Shown here piece after piece: positions 6,342-20,003 of a DNA stretch of 64,000 bases; within the stretch, counting starts at the first letter, position 1; every line of letters starts with the position of its first letter. This DNA is from Escherichia phage mistaenkt. The stretch is from sequence record MN850587.1. The stretch is one strand, 5' to 3'. A program made the translations under genes and the position numbers. Under the pieces are notes generated by a model. It was not told the DNA's origin. It searched no databases and saw only the letters and a program-made list of their open reading frames with translations.

Positions 6342-6842
6342 TTATTCTCTCTCGTTAAGTTTCATGATTTTATGGATTCTCTTCTCAGCATCTTCATAAG
6401 TCTCTTTGGTAAGAAACTTGATTGCTGCAATGTTTGCATTGTAGAAGAGTCGAAGCTTGGAGTCAATCCTTTTTGTCATGACGTCAAACTTATGTTGGAG
6501 GTTAGCTTCTCCGTAGACCAACCCACCTCGCGTATAATAAGTTTGCACAATATAGAAGTCAAACTCTTTTTCACCGAAAGTTTCAATATCTTTCTTAATG
6601 TACTCAGAAGAGGTCTGGTAAACCATCCAGTCACTCTCTTTTGTCACAATCTTACGTCTGGCCTTTCCAGCTACTTTCTTCTTGGTGACATTGTTAAACT
6701 GCTTCTTACCAATGTAATACTGTCCAGTCTTTTTGCAGTACACTAAGTAAACGAAACCAAAATACTTAGCGGGGTCAATCTCCCCGCACAGTGAAATCCA
6801 ATGCCCATATTCAGGGCAATTGCCAAAACCTTTAATCTTCAT
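6342..6842 (-). CDS. GIY-YIG family homing endonuclease (166 aa)
   Basis: GFVYLVYCKKTGQYYIGKK matches the GIY-(10-11 aa)-YIG motif; free-standing between replication genes. Confidence 0.65.
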   Translation of the reverse strand: MKIKGFGNCPEYGHWISLCGEIDPAKYFGFVYLVYCKKTGQYYIGKKQFNNVTKKKVAGKARRKIVTKESDWMVYQTSSEYIKKDIETFGEKEFDFYIVQTYYTRGGLVYGEANLQHKFDVMTKRIDSKLRLFYNANIAAIKFLTKETYEDAEKRIHKIMKLNERE

Positions 6843-7884
6843 TCATAACAGGCTCCCAACCATATTTAGCAAATGTGAAGTCATCTTTCGGATTACGCTC
6901 TTGATAGGCAATCCAGAAGTGCTGGTGCATAAGTTCAAGAGGTGTTCTTGTGACCACTTGACCATCCCATGATTCATAAGTATATGACTCTTTCTTAGCG
7001 TAAAGTTCATAGATAGCATCAAGACACTCTTTGTAAGTCTCTTTACCTTCCAGAGCGTTCATTACAGCAACTTTCCCTGCACCCTTAAGGCCAAAGTAGT
7101 TATCTGCGTTGTCTCCTGCTACAGCTTGATAGCAGAGGAATTTGAAGCCTACACCAACAGTCTTTTTAGCTTTCGGCTTAGACTTGATAGGGCAATCCCA
7201 AATATTACCTACGTTACCGTCTGCAATGAAAATCAGAGGGGCTTTCTCGTAAGTCATATCAATACAGTAAGTTCCTTCCGCTTGGCGAAGGTCTTTATCA
7301 ATACTCATAAGAGCAGCCTTCTTACCCATCTTCTCAGCTTTTGCAATAACAATGGAGTCAGCTTCAAAGCCACCTTTGAGAAGCTTAAACTCAGGTCGTG
7401 ACAGAAGATACTCACGACAAGCAACTAAATGCGTAGGGGTTACTGATTCTTTACGGTTACCTTGATACTGGTGTTCAAGACCTTTAATGTCTTTGTGTTT
7501 ATGTACACCTTTCTCAGTGAGGTATCCCATCCAAGTTCGCTCTTTACCAACAACTTTCAACCATTCCTGAAGAACTTGTTGAGTTGCCATAATAGCTTCT
7601 TTTTCACTCTTAGCTTCTTTCCAAGATTGTCTTTCCCATTCATCTTCATCGAATGCAAGACCAAGTTCCTCTGTTAGAACTCTCTGGTCAGATAGCCATT
7701 GATTAGCATCTTTAGCACTTTCAAAGGCATCAGACTCTTCAGCAGTGAGTTTATTCACATACTTGTACTTTGCTTTCTCAACGACACAGGCTCCCTTGTA
7801 AGCAATACTGTCAGAGTCAATAAAGACATGTGTCACAGTATCTGGGAGTTTTGTTAACGTGTACTTTTCCATTTGTATCTCCAA
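6832..7884 (-). CDS. 5'-3' exonuclease / flap endonuclease (RNase H-like)
   Basis: 350 aa; N-terminal HVFIDSDSIAYKGA resembles the FEN/5'-nuclease acidic active-site start, GLKGAGKVAVMNAL resembles the H3TH region; position among replication genes. Confidence 0.55.
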   Translation of the reverse strand: MEIQMEKYTLTKLPDTVTHVFIDSDSIAYKGACVVEKAKYKYVNKLTAEESDAFESAKDANQWLSDQRVLTEELGLAFDEDEWERQSWKEAKSEKEAIMATQQVLQEWLKVVGKERTWMGYLTEKGVHKHKDIKGLEHQYQGNRKESVTPTHLVACREYLLSRPEFKLLKGGFEADSIVIAKAEKMGKKAALMSIDKDLRQAEGTYCIDMTYEKAPLIFIADGNVGNIWDCPIKSKPKAKKTVGVGFKFLCYQAVAGDNADNYFGLKGAGKVAVMNALEGKETYKECLDAIYELYAKKESYTYESWDGQVVTRTPLELMHQHFWIAYQERNPKDDFTFAKYGWEPVMNED

Positions 7885-13054: not shown

Positions 13055-13477
13055 TTAATTCTCTCTCATTTTGTTAAGTGTTTGTCGTGATAACTTTAAG
13101 CTTTCTGTAGAGGAAAAGTCAAGAACTTTTTCAGACCTTGGGAAGTAATGTCTATCCCATGAACTTTCTACATCGCTAATCAGTGTTGCTAGGTTATCTA
13201 AGTCTGTTCCGTTTTGCAACTTCTTTTTTAAAGAATCTATCAAGAAGAGTGTATCTTTTGCTTTACGCCTCTCAGCAGATATCTCCTTCATATGCTCAAA
13301 GACTGAACATTTCATTCTTTCATCGTAACCTTCGGAGAGTTCAATCTCATGTTGAACATCAACCATTCGACGGTGATGGTAAGCGTATTCCTTTTGAGCA
13401 GCAATGTCAAGTTCTTCCAACTTTTTTAAAGCTCTCATGAAGTCAGCTATGTCTGGGTGAACAAACATTCTCTGCAT
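13055..13477 (-). CDS. Hypothetical protein (140 aa)
   Basis: ORF track only; first gene of the minus-strand block, divergent from the polymerase gene. Confidence 0.5.
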   Translation of the reverse strand: MQRMFVHPDIADFMRALKKLEELDIAAQKEYAYHHRRMVDVQHEIELSEGYDERMKCSVFEHMKEISAERRKAKDTLFLIDSLKKKLQNGTDLDNLATLISDVESSWDRHYFPRSEKVLDFSSTESLKLSRQTLNKMREN

Positions 13478-13734
13478 AATGCCCTCTTTTAAGTACCTAT
13501 TAAACTTAATCTGTTTTCTTTACGTATTCTATACGTATAACTTTAAAGCTTCTTAAAAGCTATTAAAAATCTTTTAAGGGTTTTAAAGAAACTGTATAGT
13601 TAATCTGTAAAGGGAGTCTTTTAAGTTAAAACCCACTTCGCAAAGATTAACACCTTGTCAAGTGAATTGTCAACTTGCTTTTTGAAACTTTTTGCAGTAA
13701 TGTATTGAGTCAATGATTTTGAGAGGGAGTAAAA

Positions 13735-16434
13735 ATGGAAAACGTAGATTTTGAAAACTTGCACTTGGTAGGTGATACCGAAACTGATGGGTTACTCCTT
13801 GAGTTCACAAAAGCACACGTAATGGCATTTGCAGATTACAAAGATGACAGTGACGAACCTGCTGTGTGGGTCTTCACTGATGAACCTATTCTTGGTCACA
13901 AATGCACTAAGTACATTAAAGGTGGTCTTCGTGAAGGTGTAGAGTTTGCTCTTAAGGCAAAACGTCTCTGCATTCATAACGGCCTTGGCTATGACTGGTG
14001 GGTGTTCAATCACATTGCACCGGACTTATGGAACTTTGATAATCCGAAGTGTAAACCTTGGGGAGACTTCTTTCAGGATTCTCTTATCCAGTCTCGTGTT
14101 CAGTGGATGGATAGACCTACACCGAAAGGTTACAAAGGTGCTCATGGTTTGGCTGCATGGGGTGCTCGTGTTGGTGTTCGTAAACCAGAGATTGAAGAGT
14201 GGGGTGTTTGGAATGCTGATATTCTGAACCGTGTTGTTGAGGATATTCGAATCAACGCCAAAACTAAACGTGCTCTTGATAACGAATACCTGAAGCTGAA
14301 GAAGTGTGGTGTAGACACTTATGAAACCTACATGCGAGCTAAAGAAACATCTTTCTGGATGAGTCAGCAAGCTATCAACGGTTGGAAAGCTGATATTGAA
14401 CTTATGCAGTTCCATGTCAAAGAACTTGACAGAATGACTGATGAATTAGCTGCTGAAGTTGAGCCTCATCTGCCACCGACTATCAAGACGAAAGGTAAAG
14501 TTACTGGTGAAGAGTTTGCAAGGGCTTGGAACGAGTATGTTGAGACATTTGGTGAAGCAGATGGTTTGAAGCGTATCACTAAGTATCCAAAAACTAAGTT
14601 CCGTCAGCAGGTTCGCAATGGTGAGATGCAGACTTACGCTATCAAACCTTTTGGTAAGCCAACTACCAAGATTTTCAACATTGAGAAGCGTAACTGCTAC
14701 ACTCCAACTAATACGGTTACTGGAGAAGAGTACAAAGAAGGTTTCGTGGCAATGAAAGATGCTCGTGCAGTTTGTAACGAGTTGAATGCTGCGATTGATA
14801 AGAAGTGCAAAGACTGGAAGCCAGTTAAAACTGTGAAGACTGTGAAGTACTACAACAATCACGTAGTAAATCACTTTGAACTTGAGTCAAGTCGTTACAC
14901 AGGTTTGATTGATGCACCTTATACACCGATTGAGTTTGAAGTTTCACGTATGACTCAGGTTGCTGTTGTGAAGGATTATCTGAAAACTCTTGGCTGGATT
15001 CCTGATGACTGGAACTACAAGAAAGATTCTGATGGTCGTCCGGTGAAGGTTTGTCGCTTCAAAGACAACAAGAAGATGATTCGTAAACATCCTAAATGGC
15101 AAGAGATGGTGGAACGTTGCGGATTGAACTATGTTGAACATGAAGGTGTACAGTACATCGAACACAACTGGTCTGTGAAGAAGTACACAGATTTGCTTGA
15201 ACCTTGCTTGATTCGTACTTCACCGAAACTAACTGAATCATCTTACGATACGATTGAAGGTGAACTTGGACAGAAGATTGCGAAGTACTATACTTTAATG
15301 CACCGACGCAGAACTATCGAGAACTCAAAGGATGACGAAAAAGGTTGGTTAAACCAGATTCGTCCAGATGGTCGTTTGAGTGCTGGTGCAATGGTGTTTG
15401 GTACTTCAACTGGACGTATGACACAATATGGAATTGTGAACGTACCTTCTGGGGCTGCTGTTTATGGTGAACCAATGAGGGCAGTCTGGATTTGTGAAGA
15501 GGGAACCAACGTAGTATCCGTTGATATGAACTCTGCACAGCTTGTTTTACTGTGTAACTTTATGGGCGATAAAGAGTTCACCAAAGCGGTAACTCAAGGT
15601 AAAGAAGAGATTGAGTTTATCCGTCAGGAAGATGGCAGATATTACTGCAAACACTTTGACGAATACCTGAATCCAGAAGTTGATAAGTATCTACGTTATG
15701 ACTCTGAAAACGACTTGTACGTAGTTTATTCAGGTACTGATGCTCATACACTGAACAGCATCTACTTCAGCTTGAACGAAGAACAAGATATATTGACTTG
15801 TCGTATGACTCAGGATGAAAATCTTCTTCACGAAATTAGTAAAGGTCGTAAGAAAGCTAAGAATGGTATCTATGCGTTACTGTTCGGTGCTGGTGATGAG
15901 AAGTTTGCTAAGACGATTAAAGCTGCGACTACTCAAGAAGGTGCATTAACTAAACAGACTTACTTTGTTCGTTTACCGAAGATTAAGAAACTGTTAGATG
16001 ACTTGGAAGCTGACTTTAAAGCAACTAAGAAAGCACTCGAAGAGGTATTTGGTAAGACTGCTGCAATTGCTAAAGGTGGTTTTGTCAAGGTTGCTGGAGC
16101 ATGGTTGTGGTGTAAGTCTCCACACAAACTGTTGAACTACTTGCTGATGGGTTCAGAAGCACAAGTTCAGAATGAAGCAATCAACCTTGCATGTCGTCGT
16201 ATGATTGATGAAGGTTTGATGAAGTTGAATGGTCGTAAGCCAGCTATCGGTGCTCGTTTACTCTGTGCATATCACGATGAAACAAGTTGGGAATGTCCAG
16301 AGAGCATGACAGCAGAAGTTAAGGCTGTAACTGACTGGTACTACGGACAAGCTTCTAAGAACTTAGGGCTTCGTAAAGAAACTCTGGTAACAGGGACTGG
16401 TAAAGTTGGTAAGTCTTGGTATGAGGTGCATTGA
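13735..16434 (+). CDS. Family A (Pol I-like) DNA polymerase with 3'-5' exonuclease domain
   Basis: 899 aa; Exo I motif DTETDGL at N-terminus, motif B RKKAKNGIYALLFGAG, motif C YHDE; GAGGGAG RBS. Confidence 0.92.
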   Translation: MENVDFENLHLVGDTETDGLLLEFTKAHVMAFADYKDDSDEPAVWVFTDEPILGHKCTKYIKGGLREGVEFALKAKRLCIHNGLGYDWWVFNHIAPDLWNFDNPKCKPWGDFFQDSLIQSRVQWMDRPTPKGYKGAHGLAAWGARVGVRKPEIEEWGVWNADILNRVVEDIRINAKTKRALDNEYLKLKKCGVDTYETYMRAKETSFWMSQQAINGWKADIELMQFHVKELDRMTDELAAEVEPHLPPTIKTKGKVTGEEFARAWNEYVETFGEADGLKRITKYPKTKFRQQVRNGEMQTYAIKPFGKPTTKIFNIEKRNCYTPTNTVTGEEYKEGFVAMKDARAVCNELNAAIDKKCKDWKPVKTVKTVKYYNNHVVNHFELESSRYTGLIDAPYTPIEFEVSRMTQVAVVKDYLKTLGWIPDDWNYKKDSDGRPVKVCRFKDNKKMIRKHPKWQEMVERCGLNYVEHEGVQYIEHNWSVKKYTDLLEPCLIRTSPKLTESSYDTIEGELGQKIAKYYTLMHRRRTIENSKDDEKGWLNQIRPDGRLSAGAMVFGTSTGRMTQYGIVNVPSGAAVYGEPMRAVWICEEGTNVVSVDMNSAQLVLLCNFMGDKEFTKAVTQGKEEIEFIRQEDGRYYCKHFDEYLNPEVDKYLRYDSENDLYVVYSGTDAHTLNSIYFSLNEEQDILTCRMTQDENLLHEISKGRKKAKNGIYALLFGAGDEKFAKTIKAATTQEGALTKQTYFVRLPKIKKLLDDLEADFKATKKALEEVFGKTAAIAKGGFVKVAGAWLWCKSPHKLLNYLLMGSEAQVQNEAINLACRRMIDEGLMKLNGRKPAIGARLLCAYHDETSWECPESMTAEVKAVTDWYYGQASKNLGLRKETLVTGTGKVGKSWYEVH

Positions 16435-16946
16435 TGCAAGATTGTGGTTTTACTCATGAGCAATTAAAATCATGGATTCACTACGACCCCTTAACAGGTG
16501 TCTTAACTTGGATTGGTAGACCTCCTAACAGTGGTAGGGTGGTTATAGGCAGTCAAGCTGGGTCAATCAAAAGGACAAAATCTGGTGTGTATCTTCATAC
16601 ACAGATACTAGGTTACAGGACAGGGAATCACCGTATTGCTTGGTTCTGGATGACTGGAAAATGGCCTGATAAACATATTGACCATAAGGATGGAGATGGT
16701 CTAAACAATGCTTGGGAGAATCTTAGAGAAGCCACGAAAGAGCAGAACATGGCTAACAGGAGACAACCTAGAACATCAAAGAGTTTAAAAGGCACAAGTA
16801 GAAGCAAATCTGGAAAGTGGATTGCACAGATTAACCATAATGGAAAGACTAACCATATTGGCACATACATGACCGAGCAAGAAGCCCACGAAGCTTACTG
16901 TGAAGCTGCTATAAAACTCCACGGAGATTTTGCAAAACTTAGTTGA
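16431..16946 (+). CDS. HNH homing endonuclease with C-terminal AP2-like DNA-binding domain
   Basis: 171 aa; HIDHKDGDGLNNAWENLREATKEQN (HNH); C-terminal GKWIAQINHNGKTNHIGTYMTEQEAHEAY (AP2-like); start overlaps polymerase stop (ATGA). Confidence 0.7.
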   Translation: MMQDCGFTHEQLKSWIHYDPLTGVLTWIGRPPNSGRVVIGSQAGSIKRTKSGVYLHTQILGYRTGNHRIAWFWMTGKWPDKHIDHKDGDGLNNAWENLREATKEQNMANRRQPRTSKSLKGTSRSKSGKWIAQINHNGKTNHIGTYMTEQEAHEAYCEAAIKLHGDFAKLS

Positions 16947-16998
16947 CAAGGTGCTCATGGAAGAGTACCTTATACTATATATTGTATAGGAGACTTGT

Positions 16999-17199
16999 AT
17001 GACTATTTCAGAAATTGAAGTTCAACTGCAATGTGCTGGATATTCTCAAAGTGAGATTGAGGCTATGTGCATCATCATTTGCAGTAGCCATAAGCACCTC
17101 AAGCTTTCTAATGAAAATCTTTTCAAGGTTGATATTTTTATCGCTGGGGGCAAGATTATCAAGGATAAGACAGGCTACCTTAAAGGTGAACGTCTATGA
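16999..17199 (+). CDS. Hypothetical small protein (66 aa)
   Basis: ORF track only. Confidence 0.35.
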   Translation: MTISEIEVQLQCAGYSQSEIEAMCIIICSSHKHLKLSNENLFKVDIFIAGGKIIKDKTGYLKGERL

Positions 17200-17405
17200 G
17201 CCATCGTGGAAGAACTCATCTTGCCATGATGCAAGGGGCTTCAAAAGAGACTATCAAGAATCGGAAGAAAACTCTTTTTGACAGAATGAATAGACTCATT
17301 GATAATGCAAGTCTACCTAACTCTGAAAAGGTTTTCTTGAAAGGGAATCTGAAGAGTATTGCACAGGAACTTATTGATATTGAATTTTGGAGACACCAAA
17401 AATGA
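17196..17405 (+). CDS. Hypothetical small protein (69 aa)
   Basis: ORF track; ATGA overlap with neighbour. Confidence 0.4.
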   Translation: MSHRGRTHLAMMQGASKETIKNRKKTLFDRMNRLIDNASLPNSEKVFLKGNLKSIAQELIDIEFWRHQK

Positions 17406-17653
17406 GCAATAAAGAGCAAGAAGCTTTAGCAATCTTCAAGAGTGAAGACAAATCAATAGCTTTTGTCTCAGAGGCTTGGTGCAGAGATTTGGGGTATGAT
17501 TGGTATCTCTTCTTATGCGCTAAGAAAGATGTTAAGCCAGTTGATGAAACCCGATTCAAAGAACTGTATAATGTCTGCCAAGATGGTTATGAAGAACATT
17601 ACAAAGGTTCTTTGAATCCTGTAAATTCAAAAGCTTCAGATTTATTTTATTGA
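17402..17653 (+). CDS. Hypothetical small protein (83 aa, start MSNKEQEALAIF)
   Basis: ORF track, start trimmed to the ATG overlapping the upstream stop. Confidence 0.4.
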   Translation: MSNKEQEALAIFKSEDKSIAFVSEAWCRDLGYDWYLFLCAKKDVKPVDETRFKELYNVCQDGYEEHYKGSLNPVNSKASDLFY

Positions 17654-17663
17654 GAGGTTTAAA

Positions 17664-17909
17664 ATGTTAAAATTATTGATACCAGCTTTAGCAGTCCTAC
17701 TGGTTGGGTGTAACCCTTCTTATGAGAATAAGGATGCTTCTTACAGACTTCCTCCAGAAATGCAAGACTGCAAGATTTATAAGCCTAATGGTGATGCCAT
17801 TAGCAGGGATGTTATTGTAGTTCGCTGCCCAAATTCTCAGACGACAACTTCTTACAAGTATGGGAAGAATAGTCAGTCACACGCCACAGTTTTTGATGAG
17901 GGATATTGA
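17664..17909 (+). CDS. Putative lipoprotein (81 aa)
   Basis: N-terminal signal peptide with lipobox (LLIPALAVLLVGC). Confidence 0.5.
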   Translation: MLKLLIPALAVLLVGCNPSYENKDASYRLPPEMQDCKIYKPNGDAISRDVIVVRCPNSQTTTSYKYGKNSQSHATVFDEGY

Positions 17910-17910
17910 T

Positions 17911-18117
17911 ATGCAGGTTCTGGTAAACTTTATCTATAAGTATGAAAACATCTTCAGCACTATGACTGTAGCTCAACGCAATCCAGTTATTCCCCGAGAA
18001 GGGGAGACTGTTGAGATTAATGATTGGAACTACAGAGTTGAAGAGGTCAAGCATAAACTTAAAGATGGTTATGACCACCAAGTTGTAAATGTGTATTTAA
18101 AAGGTAAGTGGCAATGA
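17911..18117 (+). CDS. Hypothetical small protein (68 aa)
   Basis: ORF track, start trimmed to ATG at 17911. Confidence 0.35.
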   Translation: MQVLVNFIYKYENIFSTMTVAQRNPVIPREGETVEINDWNYRVEEVKHKLKDGYDHQVVNVYLKGKWQ

Positions 18118-18356
18118 GTAGAGAAGACCAGTTAATTGATATGCAAAATGACAAAAATGAGGCAATATCCATAATCCCAATATTGTGGGGGCATGACTGC
18201 ACATATGGTAACTATCTGTGTGTTTGTGAAGACCGAAACATTGAACCCGTAAGCCGTAATGAGTATCAAAAACACTTAAAGGCTCTTGACAATTACTTCA
18301 CAGATAATAAATGCTCTCAGATTTCAAGTGAGGTCTTGCATGAAGATTTTTATTAA
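18108..18356 (+). CDS. Hypothetical small protein (82 aa)
   Basis: ORF track only. Confidence 0.4.
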   Translation: MAMSREDQLIDMQNDKNEAISIIPILWGHDCTYGNYLCVCEDRNIEPVSRNEYQKHLKALDNYFTDNKCSQISSEVLHEDFY

Positions 18357-18437
18357 AGTTATTGATGAAGATTTTGGAGGGTGCTCTTGGCACTCATTTT
18401 TCACAAAAGGTTGTCTAGCTTGTGAGGCACGTAATAA

Positions 18438-19538
18438 ATGACAATTCTGTACAAACAAAATAAAGATGGTTCTTTCAACGTCTGGTCATGCGTTGCTGTA
18501 GGTGACAAAGTGGTTACCACGTATGGCAAAGAAAACGGTAAAATGATGTTTGAAGAGTACACAGCAGAACCGAAGAACATCGGTAAAAAGAATGAGCGTA
18601 ATGCTGAACAGCAAGCTCTCTTTGAAGTTACTGCTAAGTATAAGAAGCAAGTTGACCGTAAAGGTTATGCTTATTCAAAATCTGCTGCACAGGAAGTTGA
18701 GAAGGTTGGTGTACAGCTTGCTCATGATGCTTCCAAGGTTAGCCACAAAAAATATCTGAAATTTCCTGCTGATGCTCAACCGAAACTTGATGGTGTTCGT
18801 TGCAGAATTTCAAGGGATGTTGATTCAGTAAGCTTCACAGCTTATTCTCGTGAAAATACTGTTTACAATGTGCCTGAAGAGTTAATTCCTGATTTGCTTC
18901 TCATGCTTAAGTGTCACCCACAAGTTGAAGACTTTGACGGTGAGATTTATGCTCATGGCTGGGACTTAGAAGATATTGTATCCATGATTAAGAATGCTGA
19001 CAATCCAGACCGTCACCTTCTTAAATTCTACTGGTATGATATCTGTGACAATACTAAATCATGGCCTGAGCGACGAGAGGTTATTGATAACTCACCTATC
19101 GTTGAACTTGGTGATGCTTGCAGGGTTGTTCCTGTACAGACTATCCGTGTAAACTCTTGGGAAGAGTTCGACAAAGCCCATGATAATTGGGTTAAGCTGA
19201 AGTTTGAAGGGGCTATGTACCGTTCAATCTCTGAAGAATCTTTCTACGAGTGTAGTCACCGTTCATACTTCTTAATCAAGCATAAGAAGATGCACACTGA
19301 AGAGTTTAAAGTAACTGGTGTGAAGACTGATAAGCGTGGACATGGTAAGTTTGTTGTAGAGACTCTTCCTAACGTCTTTGTGGATGTTTCATGGAAGACT
19401 ACCCATGAGAAGAAACAGTATCTTGCTGAACACCCTGAAGAGTTTATCGGGAAGCCTTTGACGGTTCAGTTCCAGAAGATGACTCGCAAGGGGTCTTTGC
19501 AGTTCCCTGTTGGGTTAGTTATTAGAGATTATGAATAA
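18438..19538 (+). CDS. ATP-dependent DNA ligase (candidate)
   Basis: 366 aa; KxDGxR nucleotidyl-transferase motif I (PKLDGVRCRI), motif III-like FDGEIYAHG, motif IV-like EGAMYRS, motif V-like LIKHKK. Confidence 0.6.
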   Translation: MTILYKQNKDGSFNVWSCVAVGDKVVTTYGKENGKMMFEEYTAEPKNIGKKNERNAEQQALFEVTAKYKKQVDRKGYAYSKSAAQEVEKVGVQLAHDASKVSHKKYLKFPADAQPKLDGVRCRISRDVDSVSFTAYSRENTVYNVPEELIPDLLLMLKCHPQVEDFDGEIYAHGWDLEDIVSMIKNADNPDRHLLKFYWYDICDNTKSWPERREVIDNSPIVELGDACRVVPVQTIRVNSWEEFDKAHDNWVKLKFEGAMYRSISEESFYECSHRSYFLIKHKKMHTEEFKVTGVKTDKRGHGKFVVETLPNVFVDVSWKTTHEKKQYLAEHPEEFIGKPLTVQFQKMTRKGSLQFPVGLVIRDYE

Positions 19539-19544
19539 AAGTTG

Positions 19545-19572
19545 TTGACATACTCTCTCCGGTAGTTATACT
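19545..19572 (+). promoter_or_regulatory. Sigma70-like promoter TTGACA-N16-TATACT upstream of the secreted-protein gene
   Basis: -35 TTGACA at 19545-19550, -10 TATACT at 19567-19572; a 9-bp inverted repeat (CCGGTAGTT / AACTACCGG) brackets the -10 and predicted start. Confidence 0.45.
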
Positions 19573-19622
19573 AGCAATATAAAATTTGATATAGGAACTA
19601 CCGGATGAGTTAGGAGAAGAAA

Positions 19623-20003
19623 ATGAAAAAGATTATGGTAGGTGTCATTCTGGCAACTCTGAGTTTTGGTGCATCAGCTATGAAGATGCCTGAAGCAGAC
19701 TTTAGCAAGGTCTCTACAGAGGCTTGTCAGATTGTTCGTAAAGTCGTAACAGATGCTGGAGAGTTGGCTAAACCGTTATCTTCTCCAACTGTCATGGAAA
19801 TGTCTGACCGCATCACTGATTACAATTATCGTGTGATGGCAGATTACTACGAAGCTGTCTCTGATGCTATGGTCACTCAGGATATTGATTTGCTTGATGA
19901 CAAAGACATTGAGAAGGTTGAAGACACCAAGCGTGACATGATGGATGAAACTTTCAAAGGTGTTCATTATTTTGTTGAAAAGCGTACTTGTGTAGGTCTA
20001 TGA
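19623..20003 (+). CDS. Putative secreted/periplasmic protein (126 aa)
   Basis: N-terminal signal peptide MKKIMVGVILATLSFGASAMK; GGAGAAG RBS. Confidence 0.5.
   Translation: MKKIMVGVILATLSFGASAMKMPEADFSKVSTEACQIVRKVVTDAGELAKPLSSPTVMEMSDRITDYNYRVMADYYEAVSDAMVTQDIDLLDDKDIEKVEDTKRDMMDETFKGVHYFVEKRTCVGL

Follow-up and report, generated by a model that had tools for sequence, protein, structure and literature searches.

The window analysed here is a stretch of 64,000 nucleotides (nt) from Escherichia phage mistaenkt (sequence record MN850587.1). It belongs to an Ounavirinae phage and matches phage CHB7 with 98.4% identity over 2.3 kb. The following features lie at and around the 3'-end of the DNA polymerase gene.

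13735–16434, plus strand: family-A DNA polymerase gene, 899 aa (Pfam DNA_pol_A, 54.3 bits)
16420–16434, plus strand: last five polymerase codons, TAT GAG GTG CAT TGA (Y-E-V-H-stop), which contain GAGGTG and accompany the type-A endonuclease gene
16434–16946, plus strand: endonuclease ORF, 170 aa, ATG start (alternative TTG at 16431)
16629–16754, plus strand: HNH_3 catalytic domain, residues 66–107 (Pfam PF13392, 54.9 bits, cut-off 24.8)
16800–16925, plus strand: AP2-type DNA-binding domain, residues 123–164 (Pfam PF00847, E=5.1e-7)
16879–16942, plus strand: 64-nt 3'-terminal block of the endonuclease ORF, encoding EEAHEAYCEAAIKLHGDFAKL, near-identical in DNA sequence across the endonuclease lineages of this junction
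16943–16998, plus strand: intergenic block conserved in occupied and empty genomes, with TTGACA, a hairpin, TATACT and the ribosome-binding site of the next gene
16999–17199, plus strand: first downstream gene, 66 aa (phrog_4230), inside the tract exchanged with the endonuclease gene between Michonne and Mordin

The counterpart of the polymerase gene is annotated as "DNA polymerase" in the records of CHB7, Sf14 and Michonne. It is an essential neighbour of the endonuclease gene, as well as the likely source of its transcript and the likely site of the endonuclease target. Positions 16429–16437 read c-a-t-T-G-A-T-G-c, where the polymerase stop codon TGA occupies 16432–16434 and the endonuclease ATG 16434–16436, giving a 1-nt overlap (TGATG). 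Starting from the upstream TTG (16431–16433) would give a 4-nt overlap with the polymerase stop (TTGA). The ribosome-binding site GAGGTG (16423–16428) stands 5 nt before the ATG and only 2 nt before the TTG. Because of this spacing, and because the annotators of both CHB7 and Michonne started the gene at the ATG, we consider the ATG the likely start. The original prediction, which placed an ORF at 16431–16946 overlapping the polymerase stop as ATGA, thus holds with respect to the overlap; the motif itself is TGATG or TTGA, and ATGA is absent across the junction. The TGATG overlap is kept in CHB7, Michonne and EC106. In the alignments, genomes with an empty site end the polymerase gene with YTN GAA GTC CAC TAA (L-E-V-H-stop).

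Domain searches of the 170-aa product found both an HNH and an AP2 domain. The HNH_3 domain contains D83-H84, N96 and N105, and in the phmmer alignment to I-HmuI (PDB ID 1U3E) these residues stand opposite D74-H75, N87 and N96; we take the roles in I-HmuI to be catalytic for Asp-His, structural for Asn and metal-binding for Asn/His. The protein also matches PHROG 99 "HNH endonuclease" with E=3e-61. The AP2 match scores 30.3 bits, slightly below the Pfam gathering cut-off of 33.3. In a phmmer comparison with solved AP2 domains from PDB the protein matches WRI1 (7WQ5) with E=5.9e-6, and ERF1, ERF096 and TEM1 more weakly; an InterPro AP2/ERF note is present on the identical CHB7 protein. A single-sequence AlphaFold2 model had a mean pLDDT of 38.2, too low for use. 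Judging from these matches, the protein is an HNH endonuclease (His-Me finger, HNH_3 type) with a C-terminal AP2 domain and intact catalytic residues, in line with the original prediction, and not a plain AP2 DNA-binding protein. A phmmer search among all ORFs of the window found no paralogue.

Two other roles for a phage HNH protein were weighed at this point, that of a packaging-associated terminase cofactor and that of a part of the polymerase (an intein, an intron ORF or a frameshift extension). Phage HNH proteins commonly adjoin terminase genes (PMC3592412), and the endonuclease ORF does touch the polymerase ORF. However, the ORF matching the CHB7 terminase large-subunit gene lies at 45372–46988, approximately 29 kb away, and the domain composition is an HNH_3 of the I-HmuI-like type plus AP2. 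As to the polymerase, the endonuclease ORF begins at its stop codon in a different frame, and the polymerase is 899 aa long in genomes with and without the insert. A search of the region 16000–17500 against Rfam matched no family and detected no group I intron, and an intron-encoded endonuclease of the I-HmuI type was rejected on this ground. Relatives do carry a group I intron in the polymerase gene, at the position matching 15877/15878 of the window, which itself is devoid of that intron. Hence both roles are already contradicted by the tests run, and we give them practically no weight. The endonuclease gene is free-standing, outside any intron or intein.

Alignment of the polymerase 3'-ends across related phages, the check suggested with the original prediction, reveals a clean presence/absence polymorphism at the exact site along with signs of recent transfer. 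The endonuclease protein is 100% identical to CHB7 gp37 (QBP32990.1), annotated as "HNH endonuclease", and 95% identical to Michonne gp37 (AKU43986.1), annotated as "HNH homing endonuclease, contains AP2/ERF domain". In Sf14, Mordin and many other phages the junction is empty, CACTAATAGTG being followed by TTGACAAGG with no insert between them; in the close relatives Sf14 and Mordin an insert of about 505 nt is missing at exactly this point. The motif TACCTTATACTATAT has no further copy in the window. The polymerase region was matched by 264 records. An endonuclease with the locus-specific 3' block is present in 154 of them, and the lineage of the window (at least 85% amino acid identity) in 46. 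Wherever the locus is annotated in these 46 records, the endonuclease gene adjoins a gene annotated as DNA polymerase.

Michonne and Mordin belong to one species, and to the right of the locus their identity is 100% over more than 2.3 kb. On the left, it is 97–100% over the 600 nt of the polymerase gene that precede the final 15 nt. What differs is the endonuclease gene, the very end of the polymerase gene (7 mismatches in its last 15 nt) and the next gene. Between the window and Michonne, the synonymous divergence (dS) equals 0.19 for the endonuclease gene vs 0.73 for the 3' part of the polymerase gene. By these comparisons, the endonuclease gene is a recent arrival in the Michonne lineage, its flanks having been exchanged alongside. 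Recombination breakpoints 230–300 nt inside the polymerase 3'-end were found in EP1, KPS64 and SUSP2.

The endonuclease gene is under strong purifying selection, a sign of retained function: among the orthologues its dN/dS is 0.05–0.12, with up to 58 synonymous vs 21 non-synonymous differences. These values, together with the HNH_3, AP2 and PHROG 99 matches, indicate that the ORF is not a chance one. The same data bear on the possibility that the gene is a relic of a homing endonuclease, without activity and retained simply because it does no harm. Phages often carry defunct endonuclease genes, I-TevIII being an example (PMC2790892), and the activity of the present endonuclease is a prediction from sequence; but the 170-codon ORF is unbroken in all 46 orthologous records, the D-H, N and N residues are conserved, and the low dN/dS itself argues against decay. 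We regard a relic as highly improbable.

Low dN/dS would also be expected of a domesticated HNH-AP2 protein, kept for the benefit of the phage and no longer actively spreading, for instance as a weapon that damages the polymerase gene of competing phages in the same cell (marker exclusion) or as an AP2 regulator that binds the adjacent intergenic block. Other observations agree with such a protein. Between Suspvirus and Felixounavirus, dS is 1.03 for the endonuclease gene and 0.93 for the polymerase gene; this near-equality points to long vertical inheritance within these lineages and also fits a domesticated gene. Some HNH-AP2 gene is retained at the junction in about 58% of related records, and the endonuclease stop codon lies inside the conserved TTGACA. 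On the other hand, near-identical genomes differ in having the gene, many relatives with an empty site are viable, and the transfer into Michonne is recent and evident. The intact catalytic residues disagree with a plain DNA binder, whereas exclusion of a competitor is the first step of homing anyway and so overlaps with the main explanation. Domestication is therefore unlikely in our estimate, if less so than a relic, and we continue to treat the gene as that of a homing endonuclease.

The same junction carries at least four other HNH-AP2 lineages in related phages. The endonucleases of Felix O1/FO1a (gp94), Sf13 (gp104), KPS64 (gp36)/EP1 and dune/SUSP2/HY02 occupy the same insertion site and agree with the window protein in HNH-AP2 architecture and in the 64-nt 3'-end; elsewhere in the gene their identity to it is only 41–57%. 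The start codons fall between 19 nt within the polymerase gene and about 10 nt past its stop, and some of these endonucleases are accompanied by a distinct version of the final ~240 nt of the polymerase gene. The 64-nt block occurs in exactly one copy per record in 154 phage records and is missing from empty sites. A locus-specific 3'-end shared by all lineages points to cassette replacement, and we propose this block as the right-hand recombination arm for cassette exchange. In 10 aligned junctions its variants follow the genus (Felixounavirus vs Moogle/Suspvirus) and not the endonuclease lineage; the exception is SUSP2, which resembles dune in the junction region. The endonuclease lineage and the polymerase 3' haplotype were tested for a strict one-to-one link, which was rejected: dune and SUSP2 have the polymerase end of EC106, and in HY02 the type-A left flank is followed by another endonuclease.

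Taken together, these observations allow a broader reading, to which we give slightly less than even odds, namely that the junction in Felix O1-type phages is a multi-allelic arena where at least five HNH-AP2 lineages displace one another as cassettes. The left bound of the cassettes may be formed by the last 15–300 nt of the polymerase gene, with lineage-linked variants that are possibly cleavage-resistant target alleles, and the right bound, by the 64-nt block at the endonuclease gene's own 3'-end. In addition, the Felixounavirus endonuclease gene may mobilise in trans an ORF-less group I intron located 557 bp upstream in the polymerase gene.

Signals for expression were sought around the gene. 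In the downstream intergenic block, TTGACA (16943–16948) includes the endonuclease stop codon TGA (16944–16946) and is followed by a conserved 9-bp hairpin (16948–16971) and TATACT (16971–16976). We did not call a promoter at 16943 since the spacing to the nearest good −10 box (TATACT) is 22 nt, and the block 16943–16998 does not pass the scan with the σ70 consensus. A scan of the region 13400–19700 for σ70 promoters and terminators gave no excess over shuffled sequences and no hit at the junction; the consensus applied may differ from that of this phage group. Folding of the region 16860–17000 as a whole is no better than that of shuffled sequence (z=−1.5), and no RNA structure hiding the endonuclease ribosome-binding site, of the kind seen in some T4 endonuclease genes, was found (z=+0.81). 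The geometry of the junction, with its 1-nt overlap, the Shine-Dalgarno sequence inside the polymerase gene and no promoter-like site found upstream, makes translational coupling to the polymerase gene plausible. An internal promoter for the endonuclease gene may be conceived as well.

The best explanation of the data, with a probability of roughly 0.85, is a free-standing homing endonuclease gene of the HNH_3 plus AP2 type inserted between the polymerase stop codon and the conserved intergenic block, with coupling and homing as proposed below; the cleavage activity is inferred from the conserved residues. The gene would have no promoter of its own and would form the last part of the polymerase mRNA. 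Ribosomes finishing the polymerase at its TGA would begin anew at the overlapping ATG, aided by GAGGTG in the last polymerase codons. In a mixed infection, the presumably monomeric enzyme would bind via its AP2 domain in or next to the polymerase 3'-end of a phage that does not carry the allele, and would nick or cut this site. Recombinational repair from genomes carrying the endonuclease would then provide the recipient with a copy of the gene together with adjoining sequence. Rival lineages at the junction would replace each other likewise, using the polymerase 3'-end and the shared 64-nt block as homology arms.

Several described systems resemble the one proposed. The closest are CHB7 gp37, Michonne gp37 and 40-odd further orthologues from Suspvirus, Mooglevirus and Felixounavirus, 85–100% identical, found at the same position abutting the polymerase stop and likewise annotated as HNH plus AP2; the window gene has no substantive difference from them and represents another isolate with the same allele. 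MobE of phage T4 is encoded by a promoterless free-standing HNH gene between nrdA and nrdB, placed right behind an essential gene of nucleotide metabolism and co-transcribed with it; the enzyme nicks the neighbouring gene, mobilising itself and its flanks by gene conversion (PMC2790892). The window gene has the same layout and the same footprint of exchanged flanks. In contrast to mobE, no internal terminator was found in it by the terminator scan; an AP2 domain is not reported for MobE, whose nick site in nrdB is mapped experimentally, whereas the target of the window endonuclease is a predicted one.

I-HmuI, I-BasI and I-PfoP3I carry an HNH motif of this subtype at the N-terminus, and I-HmuI (1U3E) aligns over DHKDG..NN..NLR...N. 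The C-terminal DNA-binding part of I-HmuI is not known to be of the AP2 type. These enzymes reside in phage DNA polymerase genes and nick one strand with a single active site (PMC3428280), but they are encoded inside group I introns interrupting the polymerase gene, while the window gene is free-standing and lies past the stop codon.

Homing endonucleases that combine HNH and AP2 form an established family (Magnani et al. 2004, cited after Barth et al. 2023, PMC10448857). According to the latter study, on vibriophage ICP1, 29% of IPA-HNH genes adjoin DNA polymerase genes; they lie where exchanged segments begin or end, and one can take the place of another at a given site. The window protein resembles them by architecture (N-terminal HNH, C-terminal AP2); the HNH of the ICP1 members is too divergent for the Pfam HNH_3 profile, which the window protein matches well. 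A distant relative comes from the F-Tfl group of T5-like phages: tblastn aligned residues 6–153 with 32.5% identity (E=4e-11) to a gene of phage DT571/2 annotated as "nicking homing endonuclease F-TflVIII", which belongs to another phage family and another locus.

Three more endonuclease genes are present in the window.

6342–6842, minus strand: GIY-YIG gene (SegE_GIY-YIG, 95 bits)
50277–50729, minus strand: HNH gene among tRNA genes
52533–52961, minus strand: HNH gene among tRNA genes

The GIY-YIG gene named in the original prediction is thus real, and its count of four free-standing endonucleases in 64 kb is borne out. The density it considered high is normal for the subfamily, given the six HNH genes of Felix O1 (PMC3185647).

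By its sequence, the window gene appears to be a typical, already known free-standing homing endonuclease gene, an identical copy of which is annotated in GenBank. As a standard selfish element it is of small importance beyond correct annotation, and its main practical value is that of a recombination marker. The polymerase 3'-end and the genes around the junction are mosaic in Felix O1-type phages, which bears on polymerase-based taxonomy and on the candidates for phage therapy among these phages. With its alternative endonucleases, which have one site and one 64-nt end in common, the junction would also be a handy natural system for studying competition between homing endonucleases.

The gene under study lies directly 3' of the DNA polymerase ORF on the same strand, and the junction is delimited by the following features.

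Features at the polymerase/endonuclease junction (window coordinates)
13735-16434, + strand: DNA polymerase ORF, 899 codons, Pfam DNA_pol_A match
16432-16434, + strand: polymerase stop codon TGA, read from the sequence
16944-16946, + strand: endonuclease stop codon TGA, inside TTGACA (16943-16948)

The encoded protein matches Pfam HNH_3 at residues 66-107 (54.9 bits, cut-off 24.8) and Pfam AP2 at residues 123-164 (E=5e-7; its 30.3 bits narrowly miss the cut-off of 33.3), as well as phrog_99 'HNH endonuclease' from PHROGs (E=3e-61). Among solved structures, the C-terminal third resembles plant AP2 domains (WRI1, 7WQ5, E=5.9e-6; ERF1, ERF096 and TEM1 more weakly) and the middle part resembles the HNH motif of the homing endonuclease I-HmuI (1U3E, E=0.067). 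Residues D83-H84, N96 and N105 are aligned with D74-H75, N87 and N96 of I-HmuI, so the nuclease motif is intact. Structure prediction from the single sequence gave a model of unusable quality (pLDDT 38). The domain search returns HNH together with AP2, not a plain AP2 DNA-binding protein. The gene is already known, since identical (CHB7 gp37, 100%) and nearly identical (Michonne gp37, 95%) proteins of related phages are annotated as 'HNH endonuclease' with AP2/ERF InterPro domains and as 'HNH homing endonuclease, contains AP2/ERF domain', respectively. The original prediction is supported: this is a typical, already annotated free-standing homing endonuclease gene. A terminase-associated HNH gene, an intein and an intron ORF were ruled out by position, frame and the absence of an intron.

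The sequence of the junction is TGG TAT GAG GTG CAT TGA TGC AAG. The ATG at 16434 shares one base with the polymerase stop, and the TTG at 16431, chosen by the ORF finder, overlaps the stop region by four bases. GAGGTG (16423-16428) lies 5 nt upstream of the ATG, which is a good Shine-Dalgarno distance for this codon and too close for the TTG; the ATG was also selected by the GenBank annotators of the orthologues. Hence the predicted overlap of stop and start exists, but not as ATGA, which does not occur across the junction; the overlap is TGATG (1 nt) or TTGA (4 nt).

Over the 2.3 kb surrounding the gene, the window shares 98.4% identity with Enterobacteria phage CHB7 (Ounavirinae, Suspvirus); this region also matches 264 records of Felix O1-group phages. 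Orthologues with at least 85% identity (tblastn) were found in 46 records from three genera, with E. coli, Salmonella, Shigella and Citrobacter as hosts; all those annotated at that place overlap a gene annotated as DNA polymerase. Alignment of polymerase 3'-ends across relatives revealed presence and absence of the insert. The site is empty in Sf14 and Mordin, which read GTC CAC TAA TAGTG followed by TTGACAAGGTGCTC; between these two parts the window carries approximately 505 extra bases. To the right of the insertion, the window and both empty sites are identical starting from TTGACA, which opens a conserved intergenic block.

Michonne and Mordin belong to one species. Rightward of the region they match perfectly (100%) over more than 2.3 kb, and their identity in the final 600 nt of the polymerase gene is 97–100%. 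What sets them apart is the endonuclease gene, the first downstream gene (57–65% identity) and the final 15 nt of the polymerase gene, where seven substitutions distinguish TAC GAG GTA CAT TGA in Michonne from TTA GAA GTC CAC TAA in Mordin. The recoded codons create the Shine-Dalgarno sequence and the overlapping start, and therefore travel together with the endonuclease gene. Between the window and Michonne, dS equals 0.19 for the endonuclease gene versus 0.73 for the 3' part of the polymerase gene, an indication that the Michonne lineage recently acquired the gene by lateral transfer. For the window against EC106 (Felixounavirus), the endonuclease gene (1.03) and the polymerase gene (0.93) have equal dS, indicating long vertical residence in these lineages. 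The dN/dS ratio of 0.05–0.12 shows a protein maintained by selection rather than decaying. This ratio and the intact nuclease motif contradict the interpretation of the gene as a dead relic. A domesticated protein serving in competitor exclusion or regulation would fit the strong purifying selection as well as the prolonged vertical residence, but leaves unexplained both the recent transfer and the presence or absence of the gene among near-identical genomes.

A group I intron (Rfam RF00028, 62.9 bits; 2967-3242 in L007) interrupts the polymerase gene in EC106, in Mushroom and in about 100 further records. Its place in Felixounaviruses corresponds to window position 15877/15878, 557 nt upstream of the endonuclease gene, where the window polymerase gene has no such intron. 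Some copies lack an ORF (~270–311 nt), others carry an 'endonuclease VII' ORF (~800 nt). The Mushroom genome note presents the polymerase as two genes, 383 bp apart, and does not mention an intron. Downstream, the intergenic block before the next gene contains a 9-bp hairpin (AAGGUGCUC / GAGUACCUU, 6-nt loop, 16948-16971), conserved whether or not a genome carries the endonuclease gene. Because no T-run follows, the hairpin does not qualify as a classic terminator.

As predicted, the window contains four endonuclease-type genes: the HNH-AP2 gene, one GIY-YIG gene and two further HNH genes.

Other endonuclease genes and an empty insertion site in the window
6342-6842, - strand: SegE-like GIY-YIG gene, Pfam SegE_GIY-YIG 95 bits
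~6843-6856: site of the CHB7 gp26 insertion, empty in the window, between the GIY-YIG gene and the exonuclease gene (6832-7884, - strand)
50277-50729, - strand: HNH gene, PF01844 23.1 bits, phrog_10822 E=2e-65
52533-52961, - strand: HNH gene, phrog_23251 'HNH endonuclease' E=3e-67, no Pfam match

This number is typical of the subfamily and not unusually high, given that six HNH genes were reported in Felix O1 (PMC3185647). The best PHROG of the GIY-YIG gene, phrog_447, is labelled 'NAD synthetase', which looks like a mis-annotation. Both HNH genes on the minus strand are situated between tRNA genes of a 24-tRNA cluster (47417-53618), and both segments are absent from CHB7. Conversely, CHB7 gp26 (~495 nt), a second HNH-AP2 gene between the GIY-YIG and exonuclease genes of that phage, is absent from the window, making this site a second presence/absence polymorphism between the two 98%-identical phages.

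Beyond the observed architecture, boundaries, polymorphism, transfer and selection, a route of expression and homing may be proposed. Across all lineages the endonuclease start ranges from 19 nt inside the polymerase gene to ~10 nt past its stop, which leaves no room for a separate promoter, and a promoter consensus scan yielded no excess of promoter-like sites. For these reasons the endonuclease would be read off the polymerase transcript and translated through termination-reinitiation at TGATG; a search for RNA structure hiding its ribosome-binding site found none. T4 MobE, a promoterless free-standing HNH gene whose expression relies on transcription from upstream, nicks the neighbouring gene strand-specifically, and the flanks are converted (PMC2790892). 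I-HmuI, I-BasI and I-PfoP3I are nicking enzymes of phage polymerase genes with a single active site (PMC3428280). With MobE taken as the model, and by analogy with these enzymes, the probable action of the window endonuclease is a nick of a single strand, within or close to the 3'-end of the polymerase gene in a co-infecting phage without this allele. The gene, along with its flanks, would subsequently be copied into the recipient through replication and recombinational repair.

Exactly the same junction is occupied in relatives by other HNH-AP2 genes, at least five lineages in all with protein identity of 41–57%.

Endonucleases at the same junction (identity to the window protein)
Sf13 gp104: 52%
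dune, SUSP2 and HY02: 48–50%
KPS64 and EP1: 44–46%
Felix O1 / FO1a gp94: 41%

The last 64 nt (16879-16942, encoding EEAHEAYCEAAIKLHGDFAKL) are almost identical in all these lineages, and upstream of this block the similarity falls sharply. The block is locus-specific: it occurs in exactly one copy per record in 154 phage records and was not found in the paralogous CHB7 gp26 or in the empty sites. In the aligned junctions the few differences within the block sort by phage genus rather than by endonuclease lineage, with one version shared by EC106 and FO1a and another by Moogle/Suspvirus phages; the exception is SUSP2, with a dune-like junction region yet a Felixounavirus-type block. On the left, recombination breakpoints fall 230–300 nt inside the polymerase gene. 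Between the window and EP1, polymerase-gene identity is 94–99% up to −300 and ~80% thereafter, the KPS64 gene equals Sf14 up to −240 and Sf13 thereafter, and the last 240 nt in SUSP2 equal those of dune. The last ~240 nt of the polymerase gene (within 16134-16434) are a mosaic hot spot with pairwise identity down to 56–85% in phages mostly 87–99% identical upstream; the amino-acid variant blocks MI/AY, LC/LL, ET/EN, TAE/TQE and WY/WM are co-inherited there. A one-to-one link between endonuclease lineage and polymerase haplotype was rejected by the junction comparison.

Judging from these alignments, the simplest reading is that homologous recombination, acting between the polymerase 3'-end and the common 3' block, swaps endonuclease genes as cassettes. 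Barth et al. 2023 (PMC10448857) described in general terms that endonuclease genes can be interchangeable at one site and can mark exchange boundaries; they also list HNH+AP2 as a family of homing endonucleases whose genes often neighbour those of DNA polymerases. The shared 64-nt end is the sole mildly new point; it makes the alternative endonuclease genes at this junction look like exchangeable cassettes.
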